Below are positions 3,229-59,916 of a stretch of DNA of 64,000 bases, piece by piece (the first letter of the stretch is position 1; each line of letters opens with the position of its first letter). The DNA comes from Verrucomicrobiota bacterium (lineage in GTDB: Bacteria > Verrucomicrobiota > Kiritimatiellia > UBA8416 > JABMPJ01). The stretch spans positions 101,896 through 165,895 of the forward strand of contig JABGQM010000001.1 in the NCBI GenBank assembly GCA_018648805.1, read 5' to 3'. The notes beneath the pieces are model-generated. The model was given only the letters and a program-made list of their open reading frames with translations, was not told the origin of the DNA and ran no database searches. The position numbers and the translations under genes are program-made.

Positions 3229-4515
3229 GTGACATACGGCGTGTATTCTGATGGTGCAGCTGATATGTTCAGTCGCAATCCGACTCGGGATATGATGATG
3301 CCAACCACGCTTTCAACCAATGTGATCACGCAGCTGCGCCGGACCTACCGCGAGGCGTACGATCTGACTAGTCTGCCGATCTCGGGAAACGGCGTCATTA
3401 CAGACCGCAACCGGAGTTCGGCCCTTCGCAACAACGCTATTTTCTGCCGTGCCCGCGCCCACGCCCTGCAGGAAGCCGTGCGCTGGGGTGAACCCTATGC
3501 CCTCTTCCTGGCGCCCGGCCTAATGACCTGGGTGATTCCGCTAGTGAACGGCGAGGAACTGGCCGGCGGTGTTAGCGGGGGTGAAGTCCGGATCGAGGAA
3601 GACGCCACCGACAGCACCGAGCTGGTCAACTTCATCGTATCCGCCGGGGTTAGTCGCAAAGCCGCCGCGGCCTACGTATCCAAGGTGCCCGCTTGGCCGC
3701 AACCGCGCGTACACGAGGCCGCCGCCAGCCTGTTCGAATCGTTCTACCAGCTCAGTGGCTGGACCCCCGCCCTCCTGACGCGTAACCGGATGAATGCGCT
3801 GCAGCAACGCCAGATCGCCGAGGTGATCCACGAGCGCAAGCGCCAGCCGCACTCGGCCTATCCCCTCGAAGAGGAGCGTATCCTGCTGTCGCTAATCCGG
3901 GTGGGCAACCGTGCCGGGGCACGCAGCATGCTCAACACGATGCTGGCCGCGATCTATCTCTACTCGCCACGTGAGGCGGTGATCCGCGCACGCATCATCG
4001 AAATGATGGGCTACCTGGTACGGGCCGCCGTGGAGGACAGTCCGCTCCTTGAACCGCTCCTCGAGCGACAGCAGAAGTGGATGGAACAGGTCTTCACGAC
4101 GGATGGGTTCGAATCGCTCTGCGTCGTGGTGCGCAAGGCGCTGGACGATTTCATGGACAGCATCTTTGAGCAGGGCTATGGCCGCACCAATAAGAAAGTC
4201 CGCAAAGCCATGGACTACGTGGCAGAGCATTTCACCGAGGACCTGCGCCTGGAGGACGTGGCCGCACATGTCGAGCTGAGTACGTTCCGCATCGCCCACA
4301 TGGTTAAAGACTTCACCGGACGCACCATTCTTCAGCAGGTCAAGCGGCTGCGTACGGAGAAAGCGCGCCGGCTACTCGAAGATACCACGCTGACCTGTGC
4401 CGAGATTGCCTACGAGGTGGGCTTTTCCGACCAGAGCTTCTTTACACGCCAGTTCCGCGAAATGACCGGCACCACGCCCGCCAGGTACCGCCGTGAACGA
4501 CGCGAGATCACGTGA
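3229..4515 (+). CDS. AraC-family transcriptional regulator (large N-terminal sensing domain + C-terminal dual HTH)
   Basis: C-terminal AraC HTH (…EIAYEVGFSDQSFFTRQFREMTGTTPARYR); paralogous to 8582..9790; start may be internal (3265 or 3292). Confidence 0.8.
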   Translation: MTYGVYSDGAADMFSRNPTRDMMMPTTLSTNVITQLRRTYREAYDLTSLPISGNGVITDRNRSSALRNNAIFCRARAHALQEAVRWGEPYALFLAPGLMTWVIPLVNGEELAGGVSGGEVRIEEDATDSTELVNFIVSAGVSRKAAAAYVSKVPAWPQPRVHEAAASLFESFYQLSGWTPALLTRNRMNALQQRQIAEVIHERKRQPHSAYPLEEERILLSLIRVGNRAGARSMLNTMLAAIYLYSPREAVIRARIIEMMGYLVRAAVEDSPLLEPLLERQQKWMEQVFTTDGFESLCVVVRKALDDFMDSIFEQGYGRTNKKVRKAMDYVAEHFTEDLRLEDVAAHVELSTFRIAHMVKDFTGRTILQQVKRLRTEKARRLLEDTTLTCAEIAYEVGFSDQSFFTRQFREMTGTTPARYRRERREIT

Positions 4516-4593
4516 GTTTATAACGTTCAAATGTTAACGCCTGAACGCACAGGCATGAACCCGGAAAGGACAATTGGCAAGCACGAGTGTCTT

Positions 4594-4763
4594 CACACTT
4601 AAGCCCACACTTGATCGCACACTTCGTCGCCACCCTTCGTTGGTTACGCTTAGTCGAACGGCTTAGTCGCTCAGCGACATAGATTGACGATCAAGCGGGT
4701 CGACTAGGTGTAACCAAGTAAGTGTGAGATTAAGTGTGGGACTAAGTGTCCGCTTAAGTGTGG
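4594..4763 (+). repeat. MITE-like imperfect palindromic repeat element, copy 1 (ends CACACTTAAG … CTTAAGTGTG)
   Basis: ~170 bp; a near-identical ~55 bp core (caagcgggtcgactaggtgtaaccaagtaagtgtga[g/a]attaagtgtgggactaagtgt) is shared with copy 2 at 17210-17395; internal cttagtcg / ttaagtgtg sub-repeats; lies ~130 bp upstream of the HK gene. Confidence 0.6.
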
Positions 4764-4921
4764 ATGGTAACCCATCCCCTTGGATACTACATTGTCGATC
4801 TGCTGCTGGGCGTTGCCCAACATGTGGACGATGCCCATGAGTTTCACCTGCTTTTCCGATTGGACCTGATCCGGCCGGGTAGGTAGTATGGACCGGTTGG
4901 CGAACATGCGGGAGTAGCAGT

Positions 4922-6109
4922 ATGAGCACGGAAAACCGGGACGACCTCATCCAGGCCAAGCGGCAGCTCAACAATGTGCTGCGCGAGTGCCACGAAAAAG
5001 AAGTTTTCAACTTCGCCCTCTTTCAGCACAACCCCTCCGCCATCACCGTGGTCGACAAGGACGGCAAGGTGGTCAAGAGCAACCTGGCCCGCCGACATGC
5101 ACACGATCCGCTGCCCGAACTCGGGCACACGCTTTTCTCGGGCGAATCGGAGTGTGACGTCATCATGAAGTCGGAGCTGAAGAAGGTGCTCGCGCAGAAC
5201 ACGGTGCGCGAGGTGTCGGACGTGCGCGCCGGCGGCCACATCTACGCCTTTACGCTGGCCCCTTTCGCTCACGGGGTGATCGTCATCCGCCAGGACATCA
5301 CCGAACACAAGCGCGCTGAGGCCCAGCTCGTGCAAGCCCAGAAACTGGCCGCCCTCGGCACGCTGGTCTCCGGCGTGGCGCACGAGGTGAGCAATCCCAA
5401 CAACGTCATGCTGCTCGGCCTCAAGACACTGCGACGCGTGGTGGACGACCTGCTGCCGGTGCTGGATGCACACCGGGAACAGGCGGGCGACTTCGAGGTC
5501 GGCATCGGCCCCTACAGCGAGTTCCGCGAGGAGCTTCCCGAAATGGTCGACTCCTGCTATCGCGCCGCGGAGCGCATCAACCGGCTTGTGACCGATCTCA
5601 AGGGGTATGCGCGCAAGGATGAGGGCGAAGCGCATGTGCCTTTCGACATCAATACCGTTGTGCAGAGCGCGGCCGACCTGATGGGCTCCACCATCCGCAA
5701 GGCCACACATAACTTTATTCTCGACTGTGCCGACGATCTGCCGCCGGTCCACGGGGCGGCCCGCCGCATCGAACAGGTCATCATCAACCTGCTGAGCAAC
5801 GCCTGCCAGGCTCTGCCCCGCCAGGACGGCCACATCACGGTGTCGACCGCTTACAACCGCGCCGCCAAGGAAGTACATGTGCGCGTCCAGGACGACGGCG
5901 TCGGCATTCCGCCCGAAGCTCTCTCGCAGATTACGGATCCCTTTTTCACCACCAAGCATGACACCGGCGGCACCGGGTTGGGCCTTTCGATCTCACGGCA
6001 GATTGCCGACAACCACGGTGGGGCCCTGGTATTCAGTTCGGCTGGCGGTCGCGGCGCCCTCGTGACGCTGACCCTTCCCGCCACGTCACACGAGGAACCC
6101 CACGCATGA
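4922..6109 (+). CDS. PAS-domain sensor histidine kinase (NtrB/ZraS-like)
   Basis: H-box HEVSNPNN, N/G1/G2 boxes (GGTGLGLSISRQIADNHGG); 4-bp overlap with the downstream response regulator. Confidence 0.85.
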   Translation: MSTENRDDLIQAKRQLNNVLRECHEKEVFNFALFQHNPSAITVVDKDGKVVKSNLARRHAHDPLPELGHTLFSGESECDVIMKSELKKVLAQNTVREVSDVRAGGHIYAFTLAPFAHGVIVIRQDITEHKRAEAQLVQAQKLAALGTLVSGVAHEVSNPNNVMLLGLKTLRRVVDDLLPVLDAHREQAGDFEVGIGPYSEFREELPEMVDSCYRAAERINRLVTDLKGYARKDEGEAHVPFDINTVVQSAADLMGSTIRKATHNFILDCADDLPPVHGAARRIEQVIINLLSNACQALPRQDGHITVSTAYNRAAKEVHVRVQDDGVGIPPEALSQITDPFFTTKHDTGGTGLGLSISRQIADNHGGALVFSSAGGRGALVTLTLPATSHEEPHA

Positions 6110-7548
6110 GTAAACCCGCTTTTCCCGTCCACCCCGTCCTTCTGGTTGATGACGATAAAGACCTGCTGCGCACCTACGTCTACGCGCTGCGCGCAGACGG
6201 GATCACGAATGTGATTACCTGCCACGATGGGGCCGATGTGGCCGATCTGATGAAGGGGCACGAGTTCGATGCGGTGATCCTGGACCTCAATATGCCGCGT
6301 GTGTCGGGCCGGGAGGTGCTCCCGGTCATCGCGCAGCGTCATCCCGAACTGCCCGTGATTGTGGCGACCGGCGTGGACGAGGTCGATATGGCCGTCAAGT
6401 GCATGCGCGCCGGTGCGTTTGACTACATGGTCAAGCCGGTCAAAGAGGAGCATCTCCTGGCCGCCCTGCGGCGCGCTCTGGATGTGCGTGATGTGCGCCG
6501 GGAAAACGCGCTGCTGACGCGCCAGCTGCTTTCGACCGAACTGACCCAGCCGGATGTATTCAGCGAGCTGATCACCAGCAACCAGGGCATGCGCAAGATG
6601 TTCCAGTATATCGAAGCGATTGCCTGTACTCCGCAGCCGATCCTCGTGACCGGGGAGACCGGCGTGGGCAAGGAGCTGGTGGCACGCGCCATCCACAACG
6701 CCAGCGGACGTCAGGGCAATTTCGTACCGGTCAACATCGCGGGCCTGGATGACAACGTCTTCTCGGATACGCTCTTCGGTCACGTCAAGGGGGCCTTCAC
6801 GGGTGCCCTGGATGTGCGCAAGGGGTTGATCGAGAAGGCCGAGGGCGGCACGCTCTTCCTGGATGAGATTGGCGATCTGAACAGCATGTCGCAGGTCAAG
6901 CTGCTGCGCCTGGTGCAGGAGCGTGAATACTTTGCGATGGGATCAGACAACGCCAAGCGCACCAACGCCCGCATCGTGGTAGCCACCAATCGCGACCTGC
7001 AGGCTATGCAGCGCGCCGGGGAGTTTCGCGAGGATCTCTACTTCCGCCTCCGCTCACACCATGTCACCGTGCCCCCCCTACGCGAACGGCTGGATGATCT
7101 GCCCCTGCTGCTGGACCATTTCCTGGCACGTTCAGCTAACGAAATGAACAAGAAGAAGCCCACGCCACCCCCCGAGTTGGCGGTGTTGCTTTCGACCTAT
7201 GCCTTCGCCGGGAATATTCGCGAGTTGGAGGCCATGTGCTACGACGCCGTGAGCACACACAAGGCCGGCGTTCTCTCGATGAACACCTTTCGCGAGGCTA
7301 TCTCGCGCGAAACAGGATCGCTGCCCGAGCCCCCCAGTCTCCCGGCCCCGGACCTGACGCCACCCGATTTCCTCAGTCCCGATCAGCCCCTCCCCTCCAT
7401 TCGCGAGGCGGAGCGACTTCTGATCGAGGAGGCCCTGCGCCGCACCAACGGCAACCAGACCATGGCCTCCCAACTGCTCGGGATCACCCGGCAGACCCTC
7501 AATCGCCACCTTAAAGCCATGCGCACCAAGGAGGAAAGCGCGCTGTAA
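6106..7548 (+). CDS. sigma-54-dependent response regulator (NtrC family; REC + AAA+ sigma-54 activator + Fis-type HTH)
   Basis: REC Asp, Walker A GETGVGKE, GAFTGA sigma-54 contact motif, C-terminal HTH. Confidence 0.9.
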   Translation: MSKPAFPVHPVLLVDDDKDLLRTYVYALRADGITNVITCHDGADVADLMKGHEFDAVILDLNMPRVSGREVLPVIAQRHPELPVIVATGVDEVDMAVKCMRAGAFDYMVKPVKEEHLLAALRRALDVRDVRRENALLTRQLLSTELTQPDVFSELITSNQGMRKMFQYIEAIACTPQPILVTGETGVGKELVARAIHNASGRQGNFVPVNIAGLDDNVFSDTLFGHVKGAFTGALDVRKGLIEKAEGGTLFLDEIGDLNSMSQVKLLRLVQEREYFAMGSDNAKRTNARIVVATNRDLQAMQRAGEFREDLYFRLRSHHVTVPPLRERLDDLPLLLDHFLARSANEMNKKKPTPPPELAVLLSTYAFAGNIRELEAMCYDAVSTHKAGVLSMNTFREAISRETGSLPEPPSLPAPDLTPPDFLSPDQPLPSIREAERLLIEEALRRTNGNQTMASQLLGITRQTLNRHLKAMRTKEESAL

Positions 7549-7582
7549 CAATGTTTGACACCGTACTGCTTTAGTACATGCC

Positions 7583-7613
7583 TGGCGCCCTATAACATGG
7601 GGCGCCATTTTCT
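7583..7613 (+). terminator. rho-independent terminator after the NtrC-type gene
   Basis: tggcgccc-tataacat-gggcgcca hairpin followed by TTTTCT. Confidence 0.6.
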
Positions 7614-7657
7614 ATAACTATATGATATAGAATAAATTACAACATCTTGAGTCATCC

Positions 7658-7672
7658 TGGCACGCCTACTGC
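7658..7672 (+). promoter_or_regulatory. candidate sigma-54 (-24/-12) promoter TGGCACgcctaCTGC upstream of the caspase-like gene
   Basis: GG and GC elements with canonical spacing (TGGCAC-N5-cTGC), ~40 bp upstream of the ATG at 7711, directly downstream of a sigma-54 activator gene. Confidence 0.45.
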
Positions 7673-7710
7673 GATATATAGCGGCACAAGCGAGAACAGG
7701 AGTTAAAAGG

Positions 7711-8532
7711 ATGACAACAAGAAACAACACGATCAAGCGGACGCTGGCAGCAACGGCAACCTTCCTCCTGGCCGCCACCCTGAGCAGCTACGCCGCGAGC
7801 GAAGCCTATGGCCGCCGGATCGCGATTTGTATTGGCATCAACAGCTACCCCTCCTACGCCCCCCTCGCCTGCTCGGTTAACGACGCGGTCGGGATGTCAC
7901 AGGTCTTCCAGAGCTACGGATTCGACAAGGTGCTGCTCCTGACGGACGAAGAGGCCCGCCGCGACGACATCGTTGGCGCGCTGAAGGAAGTCAGCGATGA
8001 GATCGCTAAAGACGATCTGCTGGTCTTTTTCTACGCGGGCCACGGCTGGACCGGCGCCGATGCCAACGGAAACCAGATGGGCTACGTGCTGCCCGTCGAG
8101 ACGCGCAAGGGACACGAGGCGGATGACGGCATCTCGATGCAGACGCTGCGCGAATCCGTCGAGGCCATGTCCAACCGTCACAGCCTTTTCATCATGGATT
8201 CCTGCTACTCAGGTTTCGGCATCAGTGTGGCCACATCCTCTTCCGACTGGACCTCCTCCCGGAGTATACAGATGCTGACCGCCGGCGGTGCGTTAGATCG
8301 CGCGTTCGAAGCCGATGGTCATGGTCTGTTCACTCGCTACATCCTCAACTACTTCCATCGCTCCGGGGGGAGGGACAGCGGTGTTTCGGCTCTGAAGCTG
8401 GCGGCTTATGTGCGCAACCGTGTGCGCCGCGAGACCTCGGGCTGGCAGACACCGCATTTCGGCCGCATGGGCGCAGGCGAGATCACGATCGCGATGAATG
8501 AGCCGGTCGCTGCCCTCGCAATGGCCAACTAG
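7711..8532 (+). CDS. secreted caspase-domain peptidase (C14 family, metacaspase/ICE-like)
   Basis: Signal peptide; catalytic dyad motifs FYAGHGW (His) and DSCYSG (Cys) with caspase-typical spacing. Confidence 0.75.
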   Translation: MTTRNNTIKRTLAATATFLLAATLSSYAASEAYGRRIAICIGINSYPSYAPLACSVNDAVGMSQVFQSYGFDKVLLLTDEEARRDDIVGALKEVSDEIAKDDLLVFFYAGHGWTGADANGNQMGYVLPVETRKGHEADDGISMQTLRESVEAMSNRHSLFIMDSCYSGFGISVATSSSDWTSSRSIQMLTAGGALDRAFEADGHGLFTRYILNYFHRSGGRDSGVSALKLAAYVRNRVRRETSGWQTPHFGRMGAGEITIAMNEPVAALAMAN

Positions 8533-8581
8533 CCGGAAGCCTGAGATCAGAGGTCGGAGGTCAGAGACTTCCACACCATCC

Positions 8582-9790
8582 CTACCCCGCACGGCGAAAG
8601 CGCAACGGCGTTGTGCCGGTCAGTCGCTTGAAGTGCTTAATGAAGTAGCTCTGGTCATTGAATCCCACAGCGTAGGCGATATCGGTACAGCTCTGCGCGG
8701 TGGTGGTCAACAGCTTCTGAGCATGCGTTACGCGCATCTGGTGGATCAGCTGCATCACCGTGCGGCCGGTATAGGTCTTCATCAGGTGGGCCAGGCGGCA
8801 GGGACTCAGGGCCACCTCGGCAGCCACGTCTCTTAGTGATATGGGGCGGGTGTAGTGGCGCCCGATATAGTCGATCGCCTGCGACACCTTGACGTTCGAG
8901 CGGTTGACCCCCTGTAGATAGATCGCGTCGCTGAAATCGTCCAGGGCGGTCATCAGTAACTGCGAGAGTTTCTCGAAGCTGCCCGCGGCAACCAGTTTTT
9001 CGGTCCAGGTGTGGTTGCGTTCAATCATCGGTTCGAGCAAGGGGTTGTCCTCAATGGCGGCGCGGGTCAGGCAGCTGAGCAGTTCGACTGCACGGGCGCG
9101 CAGCACGACCAGCTTGGGTGACGACATATAGATTACTGCCAGCATCTCGTTGAGCAGGCTGCGTGCCCCGTTGCGGTCCCCCGCCCGGATCGTGGCCAGC
9201 AGCATGCGCTCCTTCTCGAAGGCGTAGAGGGCTGGCTGGCCCTGCCGACGCTGATCTTCAATCGCCCGGTTGAGCTGTTCCATCTGACCACGCCGTAACC
9301 GGTTCTCCTCCATAAGCTCGGCCTGCCAGCCGCTCTGGAGGTAGAACACGTTCATCAAGTCGCGCGCCGACGCCTCGGCTCGTGCGCTGTCCCAGGCCGG
9401 CAGGTTCTCCAACACCGTTTCAACCGCCTCGGTCGCCAGCCCATGCTTAAAGAGATACTGCCGCGTCGGTTTGAGTGTCTGGCCCTCTTTCAGGCAGAGC
9501 ACCTCACCGCCGATCAACCCGCCGTGTATGCGGCGACGATCCTCCAGGGCCACCATCCAGGAGAGAATCCCCGGTGCCGGCTCAAAGAGATAGGGCACCC
9601 CCAAATCAATGCTCTGCTGCAGGGCGTAGCTGCGTCGGCGACGGGCCGTGTCGAGGGCGGCCAGCGGATCGTCCGATCCACTCACCCCACTCACCCCGCC
9701 CCCCACCGCCATCAGCCGCGCCGGCAATCCGTGCTGGTCACGGTAATCCCGGCTGACCGATTCAAAAAGCCGCTTCGACAATATCGCCAT
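8582..9790 (-). CDS. AraC-family transcriptional regulator (paralogue of 3229..4515)
   Basis: C-terminal AraC HTH; central region shares long colinear similarity with the 3229 protein (LLATIRAGDRNGARSLLNEMLAVIY… vs LLSLIRVGNRAGARSMLNTMLAAIY…). Confidence 0.8.
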   Translation of the reverse strand: MAILSKRLFESVSRDYRDQHGLPARLMAVGGGVSGVSGSDDPLAALDTARRRRSYALQQSIDLGVPYLFEPAPGILSWMVALEDRRRIHGGLIGGEVLCLKEGQTLKPTRQYLFKHGLATEAVETVLENLPAWDSARAEASARDLMNVFYLQSGWQAELMEENRLRRGQMEQLNRAIEDQRRQGQPALYAFEKERMLLATIRAGDRNGARSLLNEMLAVIYMSSPKLVVLRARAVELLSCLTRAAIEDNPLLEPMIERNHTWTEKLVAAGSFEKLSQLLMTALDDFSDAIYLQGVNRSNVKVSQAIDYIGRHYTRPISLRDVAAEVALSPCRLAHLMKTYTGRTVMQLIHQMRVTHAQKLLTTTAQSCTDIAYAVGFNDQSYFIKHFKRLTGTTPLRFRRAG

Positions 9791-9804
9791 ATGAATAACC
9801 TATC

Positions 9805-9828
9805 TATATCCAGATATATGGATATATA
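9805..9828. promoter_or_regulatory. 24-bp perfect palindrome TATATCCAGATATATGGATATATA in the divergent AraC / B12-binding-protein promoter region (candidate operator)
   Basis: Direct reading; AT-rich divergent intergenic region 9791-9983. Confidence 0.45.
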
Positions 9829-9983
9829 CGCACTTTATTTCTTCGATGCAACAATATCGTTATAGTTTGTGCAAAGAAAGGACTAGAGCGCACGCGGATG
9901 TCGGTCTAGGATATTCGTTTTCATGAAGTGGCATTTTTGGATCTCGTTGATGTAGGGATCTGTAACCAACACATAGGAGCACC

Positions 9984-10610
9984 ATGAGTATACTGCAGGA
10001 GATCGCTGAGAACCTGATGAAGGGCAAGGCCAATGACGTGAAGGCGCTGGTTGAGAAGGCGTTGGGCGAGGGTAGCGCACCGGGCGACGTGCTGAACGAT
10101 GGGCTGCTGGCCGGCATGAGCGTGATCGGCGAGCGCTTCAAGAAGAACGAAGTATACGTACCCGAGGTGTTGATTGCCGCCCGCGCGATGAAGGCCGGGA
10201 TGGAAATTCTTCAGCCGCAGCTGGCCGCTGCCGGCGTGGAGCCGATTGGCGTGGCCGTCGTGGGCACGGTCAAGGGCGACCTGCATGACATTGGTAAGAA
10301 CCTGGTCTGCATGATGCTCGAAGGCGCCGGCTTCAAGGTCGTCGATGCGGGTATCGACTGCGATCCCCAGAAGTTTGTCGACGTCGCCAAAGAGAGCAGC
10401 GCGGCTGTGATCGGGATCTCGGCCCTGTTGACCACAACCATGACCAACATGAAGTCGGTCGTGGATGCCGTCAAGGCCTCGGACCTGAGTACCAAGGTTA
10501 TGATCGGTGGCGCTCCGGTGACGCAGGCATTCTGCGACGAGATCGGAGCCGACGGTTATGCGCCGGACGCAGCTTCGGCGGCCGACCTGGCCAAGTCGCT
10601 GATGGCATAG
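9984..10610 (+). CDS. standalone cobalamin (B12)-binding protein (B12-binding_2 helical cap + Rossmann B12-binding domain; corrinoid-protein / AerR-like)
   Basis: DxHxxG B12 ligand motif (GDLHDIGKN), an SxL-like segment (GISALLTTT) and G-G (MIGGAP) segments; AGGAG RBS before the ATG. Confidence 0.8.
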   Translation: MSILQEIAENLMKGKANDVKALVEKALGEGSAPGDVLNDGLLAGMSVIGERFKKNEVYVPEVLIAARAMKAGMEILQPQLAAAGVEPIGVAVVGTVKGDLHDIGKNLVCMMLEGAGFKVVDAGIDCDPQKFVDVAKESSAAVIGISALLTTTMTNMKSVVDAVKASDLSTKVMIGGAPVTQAFCDEIGADGYAPDAASAADLAKSLMA

Positions 10611-11666: not shown

Positions 11667-13061
<1,395 letters not shown>

Positions 13062-13297: not shown

Positions 13298-14521
13298 CTA
13301 AAGTGGTTTCGCGCGTTTGCGTGTCGATTGCGCATTGAGCAGACGTATGCTGCGTTCGGCCAGGGGAAGCAGCACGGTAAAACCGGTGCCGGTGTCGGGC
13401 TTGCTCATCACCTCGATCTGGCCACCGTGTTCCTGCACGATGCGCTGGACGATCATGAGGCCGAGACCCGATCCGCTCGACTTGGTGGTGTGGTAGGGCT
13501 CGAAGATGCGGCTGAACTCCTCGCGACGGATACCGATCCCGGAATCGCGGAAGGATATGCCGAGGTATTCATCGGTCGTAAAGAGCAGAATCTTGAGCTG
13601 CCCGCCGTCGGGCATGGCCTGGAAGGCGTTGCGGATGACGTTGAAAAATACCTGCTTGATCTGGTCGCCATCGACCTTGATCTGCGGCAGCGAATCGGGA
13701 CGATCGATCTCGATGCTGATGTTACGGTCCTGCACCTCCTGCTTGAGCAGGGTCAGGGCTTCCTCGAGCAGCATCTCGATCCGGTTCGGCACCAGCTGCG
13801 GCCGGGTAGGGCGGATGGCCTGCAGAAATTGGGTGATGACCTGGTCGAGCCGCGTCACCTCAGTGCGCGCCACCTCGGTCAGCTCATGCAGCTCATCCAG
13901 ATCTTTCGCGCTCGTGGCGGCACCGTCAGCGGCGTCTTCACGCAGGTTTCCGATTTCGCGATCGAGCAGCTGCAGATGAATGTTGAGGGCGTTGAGCGGA
14001 TTCCCGATCTCGTGCGCCACGCCGGCGGCGAGCAGCTTGACCGCATTGATCCGCTCCGACTCACGTGCCGAGGCCTCCTGCTCCCGCTCGTGTGTCACGT
14101 CACGCAGAATCACCAGGGCCCCGCGACTGTCGGCGGAATCCTGATGCATCGGGACCACATAGAACGTTAGAAAGCGCTGTACGGGATAGGTGACCTCAAT
14201 CTCGCGCGAGACCAGTTTCGACCACTCCTTGGTGTCCAGACTCAGAATGCGATCCCAGTCCACCTCGCCCAGGTAACGCGAGACCGGCCGGCCCCGCTCG
14301 GAGTCCAGCGTGAAGCCCAGAAACTGCTCGGCGGCACGGTTGGCGTAGTCGAGATTGCCCTCGCTGCTGACCACCAGGATGCCCTCCTGGATCGACTGAA
14401 AGACCATTTCGAGCAGACCGCGGTCCTGTGCCAGGCGAAGAAAATGAGACTGCAGGCTTTCAGGATCCAAACGATCCAGTCGTTCGATAAGCTTCTCAAC
14501 AAATCCTGATTTCATTGGCAT
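13298..14521 (-). CDS. PAS-domain sensor histidine kinase (partner of the NtrC-type regulator downstream on the minus strand)
   Basis: H-box HEIGNPLNA, G-box GSGLGLMIVQRIV, N-terminal PAS. Confidence 0.85.
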   Translation of the reverse strand: MPMKSGFVEKLIERLDRLDPESLQSHFLRLAQDRGLLEMVFQSIQEGILVVSSEGNLDYANRAAEQFLGFTLDSERGRPVSRYLGEVDWDRILSLDTKEWSKLVSREIEVTYPVQRFLTFYVVPMHQDSADSRGALVILRDVTHEREQEASARESERINAVKLLAAGVAHEIGNPLNALNIHLQLLDREIGNLREDAADGAATSAKDLDELHELTEVARTEVTRLDQVITQFLQAIRPTRPQLVPNRIEMLLEEALTLLKQEVQDRNISIEIDRPDSLPQIKVDGDQIKQVFFNVIRNAFQAMPDGGQLKILLFTTDEYLGISFRDSGIGIRREEFSRIFEPYHTTKSSGSGLGLMIVQRIVQEHGGQIEVMSKPDTGTGFTVLLPLAERSIRLLNAQSTRKRAKPL

Positions 14522-14677
14522 TTGTAAGCACTCTCCCTGTTATGGATGCGACAATCTGACCCAACCATAGCGCGATAGTGCGGCGTTCGCAAGCGGTTTG
14601 TGTGGGTCATGTTGGCAGTCAGTTGGTAGTGGCACAGATTCAATCAAAGGTTAAGAACAGGCACGATTAAGGAAAAA

Positions 14678-14744
14678 GATTAGGGCGAAGGATTAGGGGG
14701 TACTTTTCAATCTTGATCTTTCGCCTTAATCTTTCGCCCTAATC
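14678..14744. promoter_or_regulatory. inverted repeat GATTAGGGCGAAGGATTAGGG …27 bp… CCTTAATCTTTCGCCCTAATC (19/21 match) in the divergent HK / LarA-like intergenic region
   Basis: Direct reading; each arm itself contains a direct GATTAGGG repeat; ~160-220 bp upstream of the HK start, consistent with an enhancer-like binding site. Confidence 0.4.
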
Positions 14745-14912
14745 TATTGGTATCGCTCAGATGGTGATACCTGGACTTGCAGGCATAAACCCAGATTTCT
14801 TTGCCATCGTTGGCGGTAGATGGTAACAGCTTATTTATTGTTCTTTTTTTTGGTGACACAGGCGTGGATATGGGGTTGACTGTGCGTTGCCCCTAATAGA
14901 GGAGAGAGTTGT

Positions 14913-16193
14913 ATGCTCTATTTCGAACGTGGATCGGAAAGCGATGTTATCACTCCGGATGAGGCCCGCGCGGCGCTGACGGGAGTGCTGGATCGGTTGG
15001 GTGCACGCGAGCGGGTATTGGCGATTCCGCCTGATTTTACCCGTTTTCACTCGCAGGCCGGGATGCTGACCTGTTTTGCTTTTGATTACTACGGTGATCG
15101 GTTAACTGATGTTTTGCCCGCCCTGGGCACGCACTCTCCCATGACGGCGGAGCAGCTTGACGAGATGTTCCCGGGCATTCCGCACTCACTTTTCCGCGAG
15201 CATGACTGGCGCGAGGGGGTGGTGACGCTGGGCGACGTACCGGCCGAGGTTGTGCGCGAGGTGTCGGGCGGGGTGGTGGACTATGCCTGGCCGGCGCAGG
15301 TGGATCATCTATTGACCGATGGCGGACACGATCTGATGCTGTCGATCGGGCAGGTGGTACCGCACGAAGTGGTCGGCATGGCCAATCACAGCAAGAACAT
15401 CTTTGTGGGCACGGGCGGGCCGGAGGGGATCAACAAGAGTCATTTCCTGGGCGCGGCCTACGGCATGGAGCGCATGATGGGGCGGGCCGACACCCCGGTG
15501 CGCCGGGTCTTGGATTATGCCTGCGAGCATTTTGCAACTGAGCTCCCGATTCTCTATGTGCAGACGGTAATTGGACGTGGCGACGCGGGCGCGCTTGAGC
15601 TGCGCGGTCTCTACATCGGTGACGGGCGCGAGTGTTTTGAGCGGGCCGCGGCGTTGTCGCTCAAAGTGAACTTTGAAATGCTGGATCAGCCGCTCAAGAA
15701 GGTGGTGGTCTACCTGGACCCCTCCGAATTCAAGAGCACATGGCTGGGCAACAAGAGCATTTACCGCACGCGCATGGCGATTGCGGACGAGGGCGAGCTG
15801 ATCGTGTTGGCACCGGGTGTACGCGAGTTTGGCGAGGACCCCGAGATCGACCGGCTGATCCGTGCCTATGGCTATTGCGGCACGCCGGCGGTGATGGAGG
15901 CGATGGCGGCCAATCCGGAGTTGGCGCAGAACCAGAGCGCGGCGGCCCACCTGATTCACGGCTCCTCGGAGGGGCGTTTCTCGATCACGTACTGTCCGGG
16001 TCACCTGAGTGAGGAAGAGATCCGGGGCGTGAATTTTGAGTATGCGCCGTTGGAAGAGATGCTGCAGCGCTACGATCCGGCCACGTTGAAAGACGGGGTC
16101 AACGTGATGGATGACGGCGAAGAGATTTTCTATATTTCGAATCCGGCCATCGGCCTGTGGTCATGGCGGCAACGGTTCGAGCAGAGCGAATAG
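14913..16193 (+). CDS. LarA-like (DUF2088/lactate racemase family) putative alpha-hydroxy-acid racemase/epimerase
   Basis: ~426 aa; overall size and motif pattern (ALGTHSPM, HEVVGMANHSKNIFVGTGG) recalled from the LarA family; assignment by memory, not searched. Confidence 0.4.
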   Translation: MLYFERGSESDVITPDEARAALTGVLDRLGARERVLAIPPDFTRFHSQAGMLTCFAFDYYGDRLTDVLPALGTHSPMTAEQLDEMFPGIPHSLFREHDWREGVVTLGDVPAEVVREVSGGVVDYAWPAQVDHLLTDGGHDLMLSIGQVVPHEVVGMANHSKNIFVGTGGPEGINKSHFLGAAYGMERMMGRADTPVRRVLDYACEHFATELPILYVQTVIGRGDAGALELRGLYIGDGRECFERAAALSLKVNFEMLDQPLKKVVVYLDPSEFKSTWLGNKSIYRTRMAIADEGELIVLAPGVREFGEDPEIDRLIRAYGYCGTPAVMEAMAANPELAQNQSAAAHLIHGSSEGRFSITYCPGHLSEEEIRGVNFEYAPLEEMLQRYDPATLKDGVNVMDDGEEIFYISNPAIGLWSWRQRFEQSE

Positions 16194-17151: not shown

Positions 17152-17209
17152 AGCTGGGGGTAGGAGTAAACGCCTTGGGGGGTGCCTCATTAGTGGGGGG
17201 AGAATTTGT

Positions 17210-17395
17210 ACACTTAAACGCACACTTGATCGCACTCTTAGTCGCCACCCTTAGTCGGATACGCTTAGTCGAACTGCTTAGTCGCCGGATCTGCCCGGAA
17301 AAAGGAATACAGTGATTTACGACCAAGCGGGTCGACTAGGTGTAACCAAGTAAGTGTGAAATTAAGTGTGGGACTAAGTGTACGATGAAGTGTGA
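17210..17395 (+). repeat. MITE-like imperfect palindromic repeat element, copy 2
   Basis: Shares the ~55 bp core and arm structure with copy 1; ~75 bp upstream of gnd. Confidence 0.6.
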
Positions 17396-53807: not shown

Positions 53808-54107
53808 TCAGGCATGTAGAGGTGCAGCGTGCAGTTCGATGCCAAGAGCCTGAACCACTTTGAGAATTGTATCAAACCCCGGGGTTCGGTCACCGGAGAG
53901 GGCTTTATAGAGACTCTCCCGCGAGAGACCAGCATCCCTCGCAACTTGTGTCATGCCCTTGGCGCGAGCGATGTCACCGAGGGCCTTGGCGACGAACGAT
54001 GCATCGCCGTTTGACTCATCGAGGCACGCCTCAAGATAGGCGGCCATCTCTTCGGGGGTCCGAAGGTGCTCGGCCACGTCATATCGTGTGGTACTTGTCT
54101 TGCTCAT
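53808..54107 (-). CDS. HigA-family addiction-module antidote (HTH antitoxin)
   Basis: ~100 aa with an HTH and the conserved C-terminus of the putative addiction-module antidote family; immediately downstream of the toxin gene. Confidence 0.65.
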   Translation of the reverse strand: MSKTSTTRYDVAEHLRTPEEMAAYLEACLDESNGDASFVAKALGDIARAKGMTQVARDAGLSRESLYKALSGDRTPGFDTILKVVQALGIELHAAPLHA

Positions 54108-59770: not shown

Positions 59771-59916
59771 GACACTTAACCGCCACCTTTACTCGGATAC
59801 CCTTAACCGACTCACTTCAACGAGAAGCGGCCGGAAAACGAGAGAGTCGATCGTTTAAGGGTATCCGAGTAAGGGTAGCGAGTAAGGGTCCGCTTAAGTG
59901 TGCGCTTAAGTGTGTT
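59771..59916 (+). repeat. MITE-like imperfect palindromic repeat element, copy 3 (divergent)
   Basis: Same termini (cacttaa… / …ccgcttaagtgtg) and palindromic arm structure as copies 1 and 2, with variant arms built from cttactcgg sub-repeats; directly upstream of the NHL lipoprotein gene. Confidence 0.5.

Follow-up and report, generated by a model that had tools for sequence, protein, structure and literature searches.

A conserved -24/-12 element and a candidate enhancer point to two-component, sigma-54-dependent control of a predicted exported caspase-family peptidase in Kiritimatiellia

The window, a 64,000-nucleotide stretch of DNA from a Verrucomicrobiota bacterium of the Kiritimatiellia, carries three consecutive plus-strand genes encoding a sensor histidine kinase, an NtrC-type activator and a caspase-family peptidase. 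The features at this locus are as follows.

4922-6109, plus strand: sensor histidine kinase, 395 aa (Pfam HATPase_c, with HisKA and PAS_4 below cut-off).
6106-7548, plus strand: NtrC-type response regulator/sigma-54 enhancer-binding protein, 480 aa (Pfam, motifs and orthologue alignment).
7545-7590, no strand assigned: candidate upstream activating sequence (enhancer), with a core conserved in 13/13 loci.
7583-7613, plus strand: intrinsic terminator of the kinase/activator operon (hairpin at 7583-7607, then a T-run).
7608-7657, no strand assigned: AT-rich spacer from enhancer to promoter, the presumed looping region (composition and inspection).
7658-7672, plus strand: predicted sigma-54 promoter TGGCACgcctaCTGC (pattern match and conservation in 13/13 loci, with a variable spacer).
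7684-7710, plus strand: predicted 5' leader (putative transcription start near G7684 +/-2; Shine-Dalgarno sequence AGGAG at 7698-7702).
7711-8532, plus strand: C14 caspase-family peptidase, 273 aa, predicted exported (Pfam, alignment, AF2 model and Foldseek).

The kinase contains a HATPase_c domain (2e-27) and an H-box, AH154EVSNP, together with a HisKA match (6.5e-6) that falls just under the cut-off (26.5 against 26.9 bits). The H-box histidine, the HATPase_c domain and the operon pairing with a regulator place it among the HisKA-type sensor kinases. No hydrophobic segment is seen in its hydropathy profile, which marks the protein as soluble. Orthologues that lie beside the activator in related loci are 45-79% identical to it. 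The kinase and activator genes overlap by 4 nt (ATGA). The operon of a PAS histidine kinase and a sigma-54 activator described in the initial annotation stands as a kinase/activator pair, whereas its PAS assignment is a weak one (PAS_4, E 6e-4, 20.4 bits against a cut-off of 23.1); PAS matches are also found in the kinase orthologues of L173 and L175.

The activator displays the full architecture of an NtrC-family enhancer-binding protein, with Pfam matches to REC (3e-27), Sigma54_activat (1e-56), AAA_lid_14 and HTH_8 (5e-11), the REC aspartate D60, a Walker A motif (GETGVGKE, residues 183-190), an AAA+ GAFTGA loop (229-234), a Walker B motif (DEIGD, 253-257) and a Fis-type HTH at residues 448-470. 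Among NCBIfam families, the kinase/activator pair matches AtoC, NtrC and AtoS best; the AtoC and NtrC matches of the activator are all under cut-off (AtoC, 342 against 714 bits). Because these scores lie far below the equivalog cut-offs, the activator does not count as an orthologue of AtoC, NtrC, ZraR or any other named regulator. The window also encodes a second, paralogous activator (11667-13061, 38% identity), in which the HTH recognition region NGNQTMAxxLLGITRQTLNRHLK, conserved among orthologues of the first activator, is different. An RpoN box (ARRTVAKYR) was not found in six-frame translations of the 64-kb window and 175 loci, and sigma-54 is presumed to be present in the host organism solely on the basis of the GAFTGA activators and the conserved promoter.

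The peptidase matches Peptidase_C14 (PF00656, 7e-19) over profile positions 1-223 of 233, and its catalytic dyad, His111 (AGH111G, 8041-8043) and Cys165 (DSC165YSG, 8203-8205), is intact, as had been noted earlier, and invariant in an alignment of 13 homologues. The C-terminal (V/L)AMA(R/N) tail is conserved as well. The AF2 model has a pLDDT of 78, with a core at 88-97, and retrieves MALT1, GSU0716 and metacaspases in Foldseek (E 1e-10 to 1e-13; GSU0716, E 2e-11); sequence matches in the PDB include Yca1 and GSU0716, and solved structures share only 15-21% identity with the protein. In the model, the protein is predicted to adopt the caspase-hemoglobinase (p20) fold. The C14 orthocaspase/metacaspase family has been defined previously, and its orthocaspases rely on a His/Cys dyad to cut their substrates after basic residues (PMC6426788). 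By inspection, residues about 1-28 form a putative Sec-type signal peptide, in which R4/K9/R10 are followed by TLAATATFLLAATL and then SYA|AS; the Kyte-Doolittle maximum lies at residues 11-29, the AF2 model has a low-confidence helix at the N-terminus, and N-terminal hydrophobic segments are present in the homologues. The earlier description of the peptidase as "secreted" is therefore better worded as "exported", to the periplasm or beyond.

Upstream of the peptidase gene, TGGCACGCCTACTGC at 7658-7672 on the plus strand places GG at 7659-7660 (-24/-25) and GC at 7671-7672 (-13/-12), which is the canonical GG-N10-GC spacing originally reported for this site. The element matches the consensus TGGCAC-N5-TTGC at 9/10 positions, the single mismatch being a -12 block of CTGC rather than TTGC, and the peptidase ATG (7711) lies 39 nt downstream of the C of its GC, in agreement with the first estimate of about 40 bp. 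Since the distance from -12 to +1 is fixed in sigma-54 promoters, transcription is predicted to start near G7684. TGGCAC-N5-YTGC has a single match in the 64-kb window, the 7658-7672 element itself; shuffled windows are expected to contain 0.60 matches per 64 kb, and 42% of shuffles contain at least one. Taken alone, the motif is thus within chance, and the weight of the argument is carried by its position and conservation. A looser test returned five further 9/10 sigma-54 sites in the window, which were rejected as promoters for being intragenic, as most are, or, at 54089, for overlapping the start of a minus-strand gene. No convincing sigma-54 site was seen in the neighbourhood of the second activator (14500-14913). 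A scan of 4500-10000 for sigma-70-like promoters gave no match, which is weak evidence because the consensus of this phylum is unknown. An Rfam search of 4400-8700 gave no match at E up to 1, and the region thus holds no known riboswitch or leader RNA.

Comparison across related loci provides this weight. The comparison set comprises 13 non-redundant loci with this caspase family or the partner activator, and the related loci come from Kiritimatiellia/Lentisphaerae-type MAGs with 28-85% protein identity. In 13/13 of these loci TGGYAY-N5-BTGC precedes the caspase start by 15-42 nt, and it is kept even where the surrounding DNA is unalignable and the gene order rearranged, while its 5-nt spacer and its flanks vary freely. 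The same pattern occurs only nine other times in 350 kb of these loci (0.026 per kb). Beyond this family the signal fades: most of the distant caspases (25-36% identity; Desulfobacterales and others) lack both sigma-54 sites and adjacent activators, with L153 as an exception, and about 11 of 157 such loci have any upstream site scoring at least 8/10, which argues that the circuit is specific to this caspase family.

The intergenic region contains a second conserved element. At 7545-7590, GTAACA (7545-7550) is followed by a core dyad, TTTGAC-ACC-GTACTG (7554-7568; TTTGACaccGTA), and then by a half-site-like element. The core, TTTKAC-N3-GTMA, is present in every one of the 13 loci about 85-105 nt upstream of -24, appears in inverted orientation in L010 and L011, and is palindromic (TTTGAC-N3-GTCAAA) in L009 and L011. 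It is kept whichever gene lies upstream, be it the activator gene, as in the window, or an AraC gene, as in L007, L092 and L173. An unbiased scan returned it as the top conserved 11-mer, in 5/7 distant loci, whereas none of 30 shuffles exceeded 4, and the exact pattern has no second occurrence in the 64-kb window. This dyad-symmetric element sits where an enhancer-binding protein would bind, and we regard it as a candidate enhancer. The core is absent upstream of the kinase gene, and autoregulation of the kinase/activator operon was rejected on this ground.

The GC content of the intergenic region is 43%, compared with 60% for the window; inspection of the enhancer-promoter interval by eye revealed no WATCAA-N4-TTR match to an IHF site. 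The clean terminator annotated at 7583-7613 proved to have an 11-bp GC-rich stem of -19.8 kcal/mol (z = -4.7 against shuffles), and in L001, L003, L012 and L013 the hairpin and T-run are retained with different stem sequences. The peptidase gene is therefore split from the kinase/activator operon by a strong terminator, and since the next gene is convergent, it is monocistronic.

Activator orthologues with 60-85% identity and an intact GAFTGA motif adjoin the caspase gene in 9/13 loci, in tandem in the window, L001, L012, L013, L003, L010 and L030, and convergently in L007 and L173. In L005, L009 and L011, the caspase gene retains promoter and enhancer with no activator within 6 kb, and in L172, L174 and L175 orthologous activators occur without an adjacent caspase gene, indicating that linkage is frequent and not obligatory. 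Linkage of the caspase gene to an AraC-family gene is roughly as frequent as its linkage to the activator, and the AraC-family product could therefore bind part of the upstream element.

The reading we favour, and consider probable, is that the three genes form a module in which the kinase and the NtrC-type activator control the exported caspase-family peptidase via the conserved enhancer and the -24/-12 promoter. The conserved promoter and the conserved dyad element with its linked activator are two independent lines of sequence support for sigma-54 control, and the two-component, sigma-54-dependent regulation first proposed for this peptidase is thus supported by inference. In the proposed circuit, built on directly observed sequence elements, their conservation and gene linkage, we infer the sigma-54 dependence, the activator's identity, the start site, export, and the peptidase's activity and specificity. 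The cytoplasmic PAS-type kinase would sense an intracellular signal and phosphorylate Asp60 of the activator, which would assemble on the dyad-symmetric enhancer immediately after the stop codon of its gene and loop over some 100 bp of AT-rich DNA that also holds the operon terminator. ATP hydrolysis and the GAFTGA loop would then open the sigma-54 holoenzyme at TGGCAC-N5-CTGC, and transcription from near 7684 would yield a monocistronic mRNA with a 27-nt leader. The resulting cysteine peptidase would be exported by its Sec signal peptide and act either in the periplasm or beyond the cell, where, by analogy with other ortho- and metacaspases, its cleavage sites would probably follow basic residues. 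We give somewhat better than even credence to the broader version, in which a dedicated two-component/sigma-54 circuit of this kind extends across the Kiritimatiellia with the exported caspase as its sole local output, and in which the deeper branches make leaderless or near-leaderless caspase mRNAs, because their -12 element lies only 15-19 nt from the ATG.

The most serious competitor accepts the sigma-54 promoter and questions only its partner: the promoter might answer to another enhancer-binding protein, encoded at 11667-13061 or unlinked, with the adjacent pair controlling other genes and its adjacency reflecting inherited synteny. The presence of two activators in the window would fit this, as would the three loci with promoter and enhancer and no nearby activator and the three with activators and no caspase gene. 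However, the same activator working in trans would account for the unlinked cases just as well, the linked activator is orthologous in nine loci that span three gene arrangements, L003, L007, L010 and L173 lack the second activator, and conservation of the HTH parallels that of the enhancer. We therefore consider this explanation unlikely.

It is far less probable that TGGCAC-N5-CTGC is a chance or non-promoter sequence, with the caspase gene transcribed from a housekeeping-sigma promoter and possibly governed by neighbouring AraC-family regulators. Chance alone would account for a single match in 64 kb (0.6 per window), genes of the AraC family flank the locus and accompany the caspase gene in most loci, and the promoter consensus of the phylum is uncharacterised; yet it is exactly the -24 and -12 blocks that are kept in 13/13 loci against the low background, with spacer and flanks unconstrained, no sigma-70-like site was detected in 4500-10000, and an intact GAFTGA activator is encoded next door. 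Least probable of all, and rejected here, is that the module belongs to an anti-phage or conflict system with the caspase-like protease as effector. The peptidase matches the generic PADLOC "caspase" model (1e-12) and, below threshold, the NCBIfam family "caspase, EACC1-associated type", and the activator matches RtcR/PspF-type PADLOC models, but these matches reflect generic shared domains only and score under the family cut-offs (68 against 140 bits). The protease itself is small, with a putative signal peptide, and carries none of the sensor or partner domains that defence caspases have; the genes around it are metabolic and regulatory.

The favoured module of kinase, activator and exported caspase resembles NtrB/NtrC-glnAp2 and AtoS/AtoC, which likewise combine a histidine kinase with a REC-AAA+(GAFTGA)-Fis-HTH activator, place the target beside the regulator genes and have a dyad enhancer some 100 bp ahead of a GG-N10-GC promoter. 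It differs from them in its host, a Kiritimatiellia-type PVC bacterium, and in its target, a single protease of predicted export rather than a metabolic operon. The NtrC site is TGCACC-N5-GGTGCA, unlike the TTTKAC-N3-GTMA of the enhancer described here. The peptidase shares the p20-type fold and His-Cys dyad of bacterial orthocaspases and metacaspase-like C14 proteins such as Microcystis MaOC1 and Geobacter GSU0716 (PDB 3bij), but starts with a putative signal peptide and lacks accessory domains; a transcriptional control is proposed for it, whereas none is reported for the others in the literature searched. No paper in that literature connected bacterial caspase homologues with sigma-54 or with a two-component system of their own: a search for orthocaspase with sigma-54 returned nothing, metacaspase with sigma-54 returned unrelated papers only, and Kiritimatiell* with sigma-54 or rpoN returned nothing. 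A predicted exported enzyme under proposed sigma-54/enhancer-binding-protein control fits the theme of sigma-54 as "controller of the bacterial exterior", the title phrase of Francke et al. 2011 (PMC3162934), which names neither caspases nor peptidases among the targets and in whose text PVC-group bacteria were not found. The regulatory design is canonical, even textbook, while the kind of target is unusual and previously unreported.

Little is known of what bacterial caspase homologues do in the physiology of the cell. If the broader version of the circuit is real, a bacterial ortho- or metacaspase would for the first time have a defined signal-to-transcription pathway. The module offers a concrete handle, as promoter, enhancer and activator are all transferable to a reporter host, and it extends the annotation of sigma-54 promoters and enhancers to the poorly studied Kiritimatiellia. 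The signal of the kinase, once found, would reveal the circumstances in which the protease is put to use.

The module consists of a histidine kinase (HK) gene, an NtrC-type activator gene and a gene for a caspase-like C14 peptidase (the caspase), arranged as follows:

4922-6109: histidine kinase, 395 aa; HATPase_c (2e-27), H-box AH154EVSNP
6106-7548: NtrC-type activator, 480 aa; REC, Sigma54_activat (1e-56), AAA_lid_14 and HTH_8
7583-7613: terminator of the HK/activator operon; 11-bp GC-rich hairpin, then a T-run
7658-7672, + strand: candidate sigma-54 promoter, GG-N10-GC, TGGCACGCCTACTGC
7711-8532, + strand: Peptidase_C14 protein, 273 aa (Pfam 7e-19)

The HK and activator genes overlap at 6106-6109 (ATGA), and the terminator that the initial annotation placed at the end of their operon is evident as a stable hairpin (-19.8 kcal/mol, z = -4.7). 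The pairing of a PAS histidine kinase with a sigma-54 activator likewise stands for both proteins, with the PAS assignment less secure, as the PAS_4 match of the HK, like its HisKA match, falls slightly below the Pfam threshold. No hydrophobic segment was found in the HK protein, and the sensor is thus predicted to be cytoplasmic. The activator carries D60 in LDLNMP, Walker A (183-190), GAFTGA (229-234) and Walker B (253-257).

In the candidate promoter, exactly 10 nt lie between GG (7659-7660) and GC (7671-7672), 9 of the 10 specified positions of TGGCAC-N5-TTGC agree, and the ATG at 7711 lies 39 nt downstream of the C of GC, matching the element and the distance of ~40 bp first described. 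AGGAG (7698-7702) provides a Shine-Dalgarno sequence 8 nt before this ATG. By itself, the motif is not beyond chance: 0.6 occurrences are expected per shuffled window, at least one match appears in 42% of shuffles, and the window holds five further 9/10 sigma-54-type sites, mostly intragenic. The case for the promoter therefore rests on position and conservation.

About 20 close homologues of the caspase were found, all in Kiritimatiellia/Lentisphaerae-type metagenome bins. Contigs carrying caspase homologues and those carrying activator orthologues were compared, giving 13 non-redundant loci (the window, contigs L001 and L012, and the ten other contigs tabulated below), whose caspases share 28-85% identity with the window protein. 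In 13/13 loci, TGGYAY-N5-BTGC precedes the caspase start by 15-42 nt on the coding strand, compared with only 9 other occurrences in 350 kb of these loci on both strands (0.026 per kb). The -24 and -12 blocks and their spacing are constant, while the 5-nt spacer and the flanks are free to differ, which is the signature of a sigma-54 promoter. When five close relatives with alignable DNA are counted as one lineage, about nine independent lineages remain. Among distant caspases, only about 11 of 157 loci have any site of at least 8/10 in a scan of about 330 nt upstream.

Candidate promoter elements and candidate enhancer cores (locus; promoter element; enhancer core)
Window; TGGCACgcctaCTGC; 7554-7568, TTTGACaccGTACTG
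L013; TGGCACgctcgTTGC
L003; TGGCACgttcgCTGC
L005; TGGCATcgtgcCTGC; TTTGACagcGTAAAG
L007; TGGCACcgagaTTGC; TTTTACaccGTAACG
L092; TGGCACatgcgTTGC; CTTTACcccGTAATG
L009; TGGCATggctgCTGC; TTTTACacaGTCAAA
L010; TGGTACggttgGTGC; inverted, TTTTACtccGTAACA
L011; TGGCATtccgtGTGC; inverted, TTTGACggtGTCAAA, perfect 6-3-6 palindrome
L030; TGGCATggtgaTTGC; TTTTCCactGTAGCA
L173; TGGCATatccgTTGC; TTTTACtttGTCTAG

Beyond the initial annotation, a second conserved block, with a TTTKAC-N3-GTMA core, lies about 100 nt (85-105 nt) upstream of -24 in every one of the 13 loci. Half-site-like elements flank the core on both sides (GTAACA upstream and, about 17-19 nt downstream, a second TTTTAC or GTTAC), and the exact degenerate pattern occurs once in the window. 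When the 220-nt upstream region from the window was compared with seven distant loci in an unbiased 11-mer scan, TTTGACACCGT and TTGACACCGTA were the only 11-mers shared by at least 4 loci, each in 5/7; the maximum in 30 shuffles was 4 loci. Conservation of the block is not due to coding sequence; the preceding gene is the activator, past its stop codon, in the window clade and an AraC gene in L007, L092 and L173. The dimeric Fis-type HTH of an NtrC-family enhancer-binding protein is expected to bind a site with dyad symmetry, in either orientation and at such a distance. By analogy, the block is a candidate enhancer.

Orthologous activators share 60-85% identity with that of the window, versus only 38% for its paralogue (11667-13061). 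All keep GAFTGA (GAYTGA in L173), and their HTH region, NGNQTMAxxLLGITRQTLNRHLK, is nearly invariant and differs in the paralogue. The orthologue immediately precedes the caspase in the window, L001, L012, L013, L003, L010 and L030, and is downstream and convergent in L007 and L173; the linkage has therefore outlived at least one rearrangement. In L005, L009 and L011, promoter and enhancer are present and no activator was found within 6 kb; conversely, an orthologous activator is present in L172, L174 and L175, with no caspase found. These unlinked loci leave room for some other activator driving the caspase promoter, and are equally compatible with the orthologous activator acting in trans. 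Taken together, the observation of the element is confirmed, and its reading as sigma-54 control is supported by strong comparative evidence.

In the deeper branches, the -12 C lies just 15-19 nt from the caspase ATG, with no space for a Shine-Dalgarno sequence (L092 375-408; L009 1987-2018; L011 3921-3953; L030 5966-6001; L173 about 7377-7344, minus strand). A sigma-54 start there would leave a 3-7 nt leader, i.e., a leaderless or near-leaderless mRNA, unlike in the window clade, where a predicted 27-nt leader carries AGGAG. Similar spacing is seen in L153 (744-776), an unrelated metagenome contig, in which a perfect TGGCACgaaccTTGC (744-758) lies 15 nt before the ATG of a distant caspase (27% identity, signal peptide present); no activator was found in the 7.5 kb of contig sequence. 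Small exported caspases outside the family may therefore also be under sigma-54 control.

The gene after the caspase, an AraC-family regulator (8582-9790), is convergent, and the caspase gene is therefore monocistronic. The His/Cys dyad proposed from the initial reading is intact, with His111 (AGHG) and Cys165 (DSCYSG) invariant in 13 homologues. The AlphaFold model has a mean pLDDT of 78 (core 88-97), with low values confined to the signal peptide, one loop and the tail. The best structural matches of the model are MALT1 paracaspase, Geobacter GSU0716 (3bij) and metacaspases of yeast, plants and trypanosomes (TM about 0.6, E 1e-13 to 1e-9), and a PDB sequence search returned the same relatives. 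Orthocaspases, which use the same dyad, cut their substrates after basic residues (PMC6426788), a specificity that may carry over to the window protease. Secretion, as originally suggested, is likely at the level of export: by inspection, basic residues at the N-terminus are followed by a hydrophobic core of 14 residues and SYA|AS, and homologues likewise carry N-terminal hydrophobic segments (a lipobox-like LLAC in L010). Nearly all family members end in a (V/L)AMA(R/N) tail (window 8512-8529; low AF2 confidence), which might serve in sorting, anchoring or autoinhibition and is not known to match any signal. A 240-aa database match, P0019, annotated as a FixJ-family response regulator, shares 94% identity with the caspase across 36% of its length; a frameshift or a chimeric gene call in a closely related contig probably explains this match.

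AraC-family paralogues (about 40% identical) bracket the module at 3229-4515 (+), with a PocR sensory domain, and 8582-9790 (-), and an MtgC/MtbC-like corrinoid protein is encoded beside it (9984-10610, +); in L173, S-methyltransferase and pterin-binding genes come next. This AraC-corrinoid neighbourhood accompanies the caspase at a frequency similar to that of the activator (L001, L003, L007, L010, L173). In L174, a Lentisphaerae MAG, an IS200/IS605-type (Y1_Tnp) transposase gene (6784-7803) occupies the caspase's usual place after the HK/activator operon. A defence-system reading of the module was rejected. A second HK/sigma-54 activator pair, 11667-13061 (-) and 13298-14521 (-), lies 3 kb past the caspase gene end; no convincing -24/-12 site was found near this pair, nor at 14521-14913, which is upstream of the following gene. 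A hairpin repeat about 180 nt long is dispersed over three positions (4594-4763, 17209-17394, 59883-59914), with each arm made of 3-4 tandem 12-nt units containing TAAGTGTG (TAAGTGTG-N4-TAAGTGTG: 12 matches versus 0.12 expected). Copies 1 and 2 align over about 180 nt, and copy 3 is incomplete; the copy that precedes the HK gene has no counterpart in L001 and L003, which are syntenic and have a gap of only 50-90 nt at this position. The repeat has no Rfam match and looks MITE- or REP-like; a hairpin of 13-nt units at 14665-14748 is separate.

In the mechanism that these conserved elements suggest, a signal would lead the PAS-HK (H154) to phosphorylate the activator (D60~P), which would oligomerise at 7545-7590, loop across the AT-rich spacer (43% GC versus 60% for the window) and use ATP to remodel the sigma-54 holoenzyme at 7658-7672. 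Transcription from near 7684 would yield a leader with the Shine-Dalgarno sequence and then the pre-protease, to be exported via Sec as an active C14 peptidase. The design is the canonical one of NtrB/NtrC and AtoS/AtoC; however, the window system scores below every NCBIfam equivalog threshold, and is therefore an unnamed family member, and its target is unusual. A literature search found nothing connecting sigma-54 to bacterial ortho- or metacaspases and nothing on sigma-54 in Kiritimatiellia. The "bacterial exterior" theme of sigma-54 accommodates an exported enzyme, and such proteases go unmentioned in that paper (PMC3162934). While the regulatory logic is textbook, the module offers a rare, testable way into the role of a bacterial caspase homologue.
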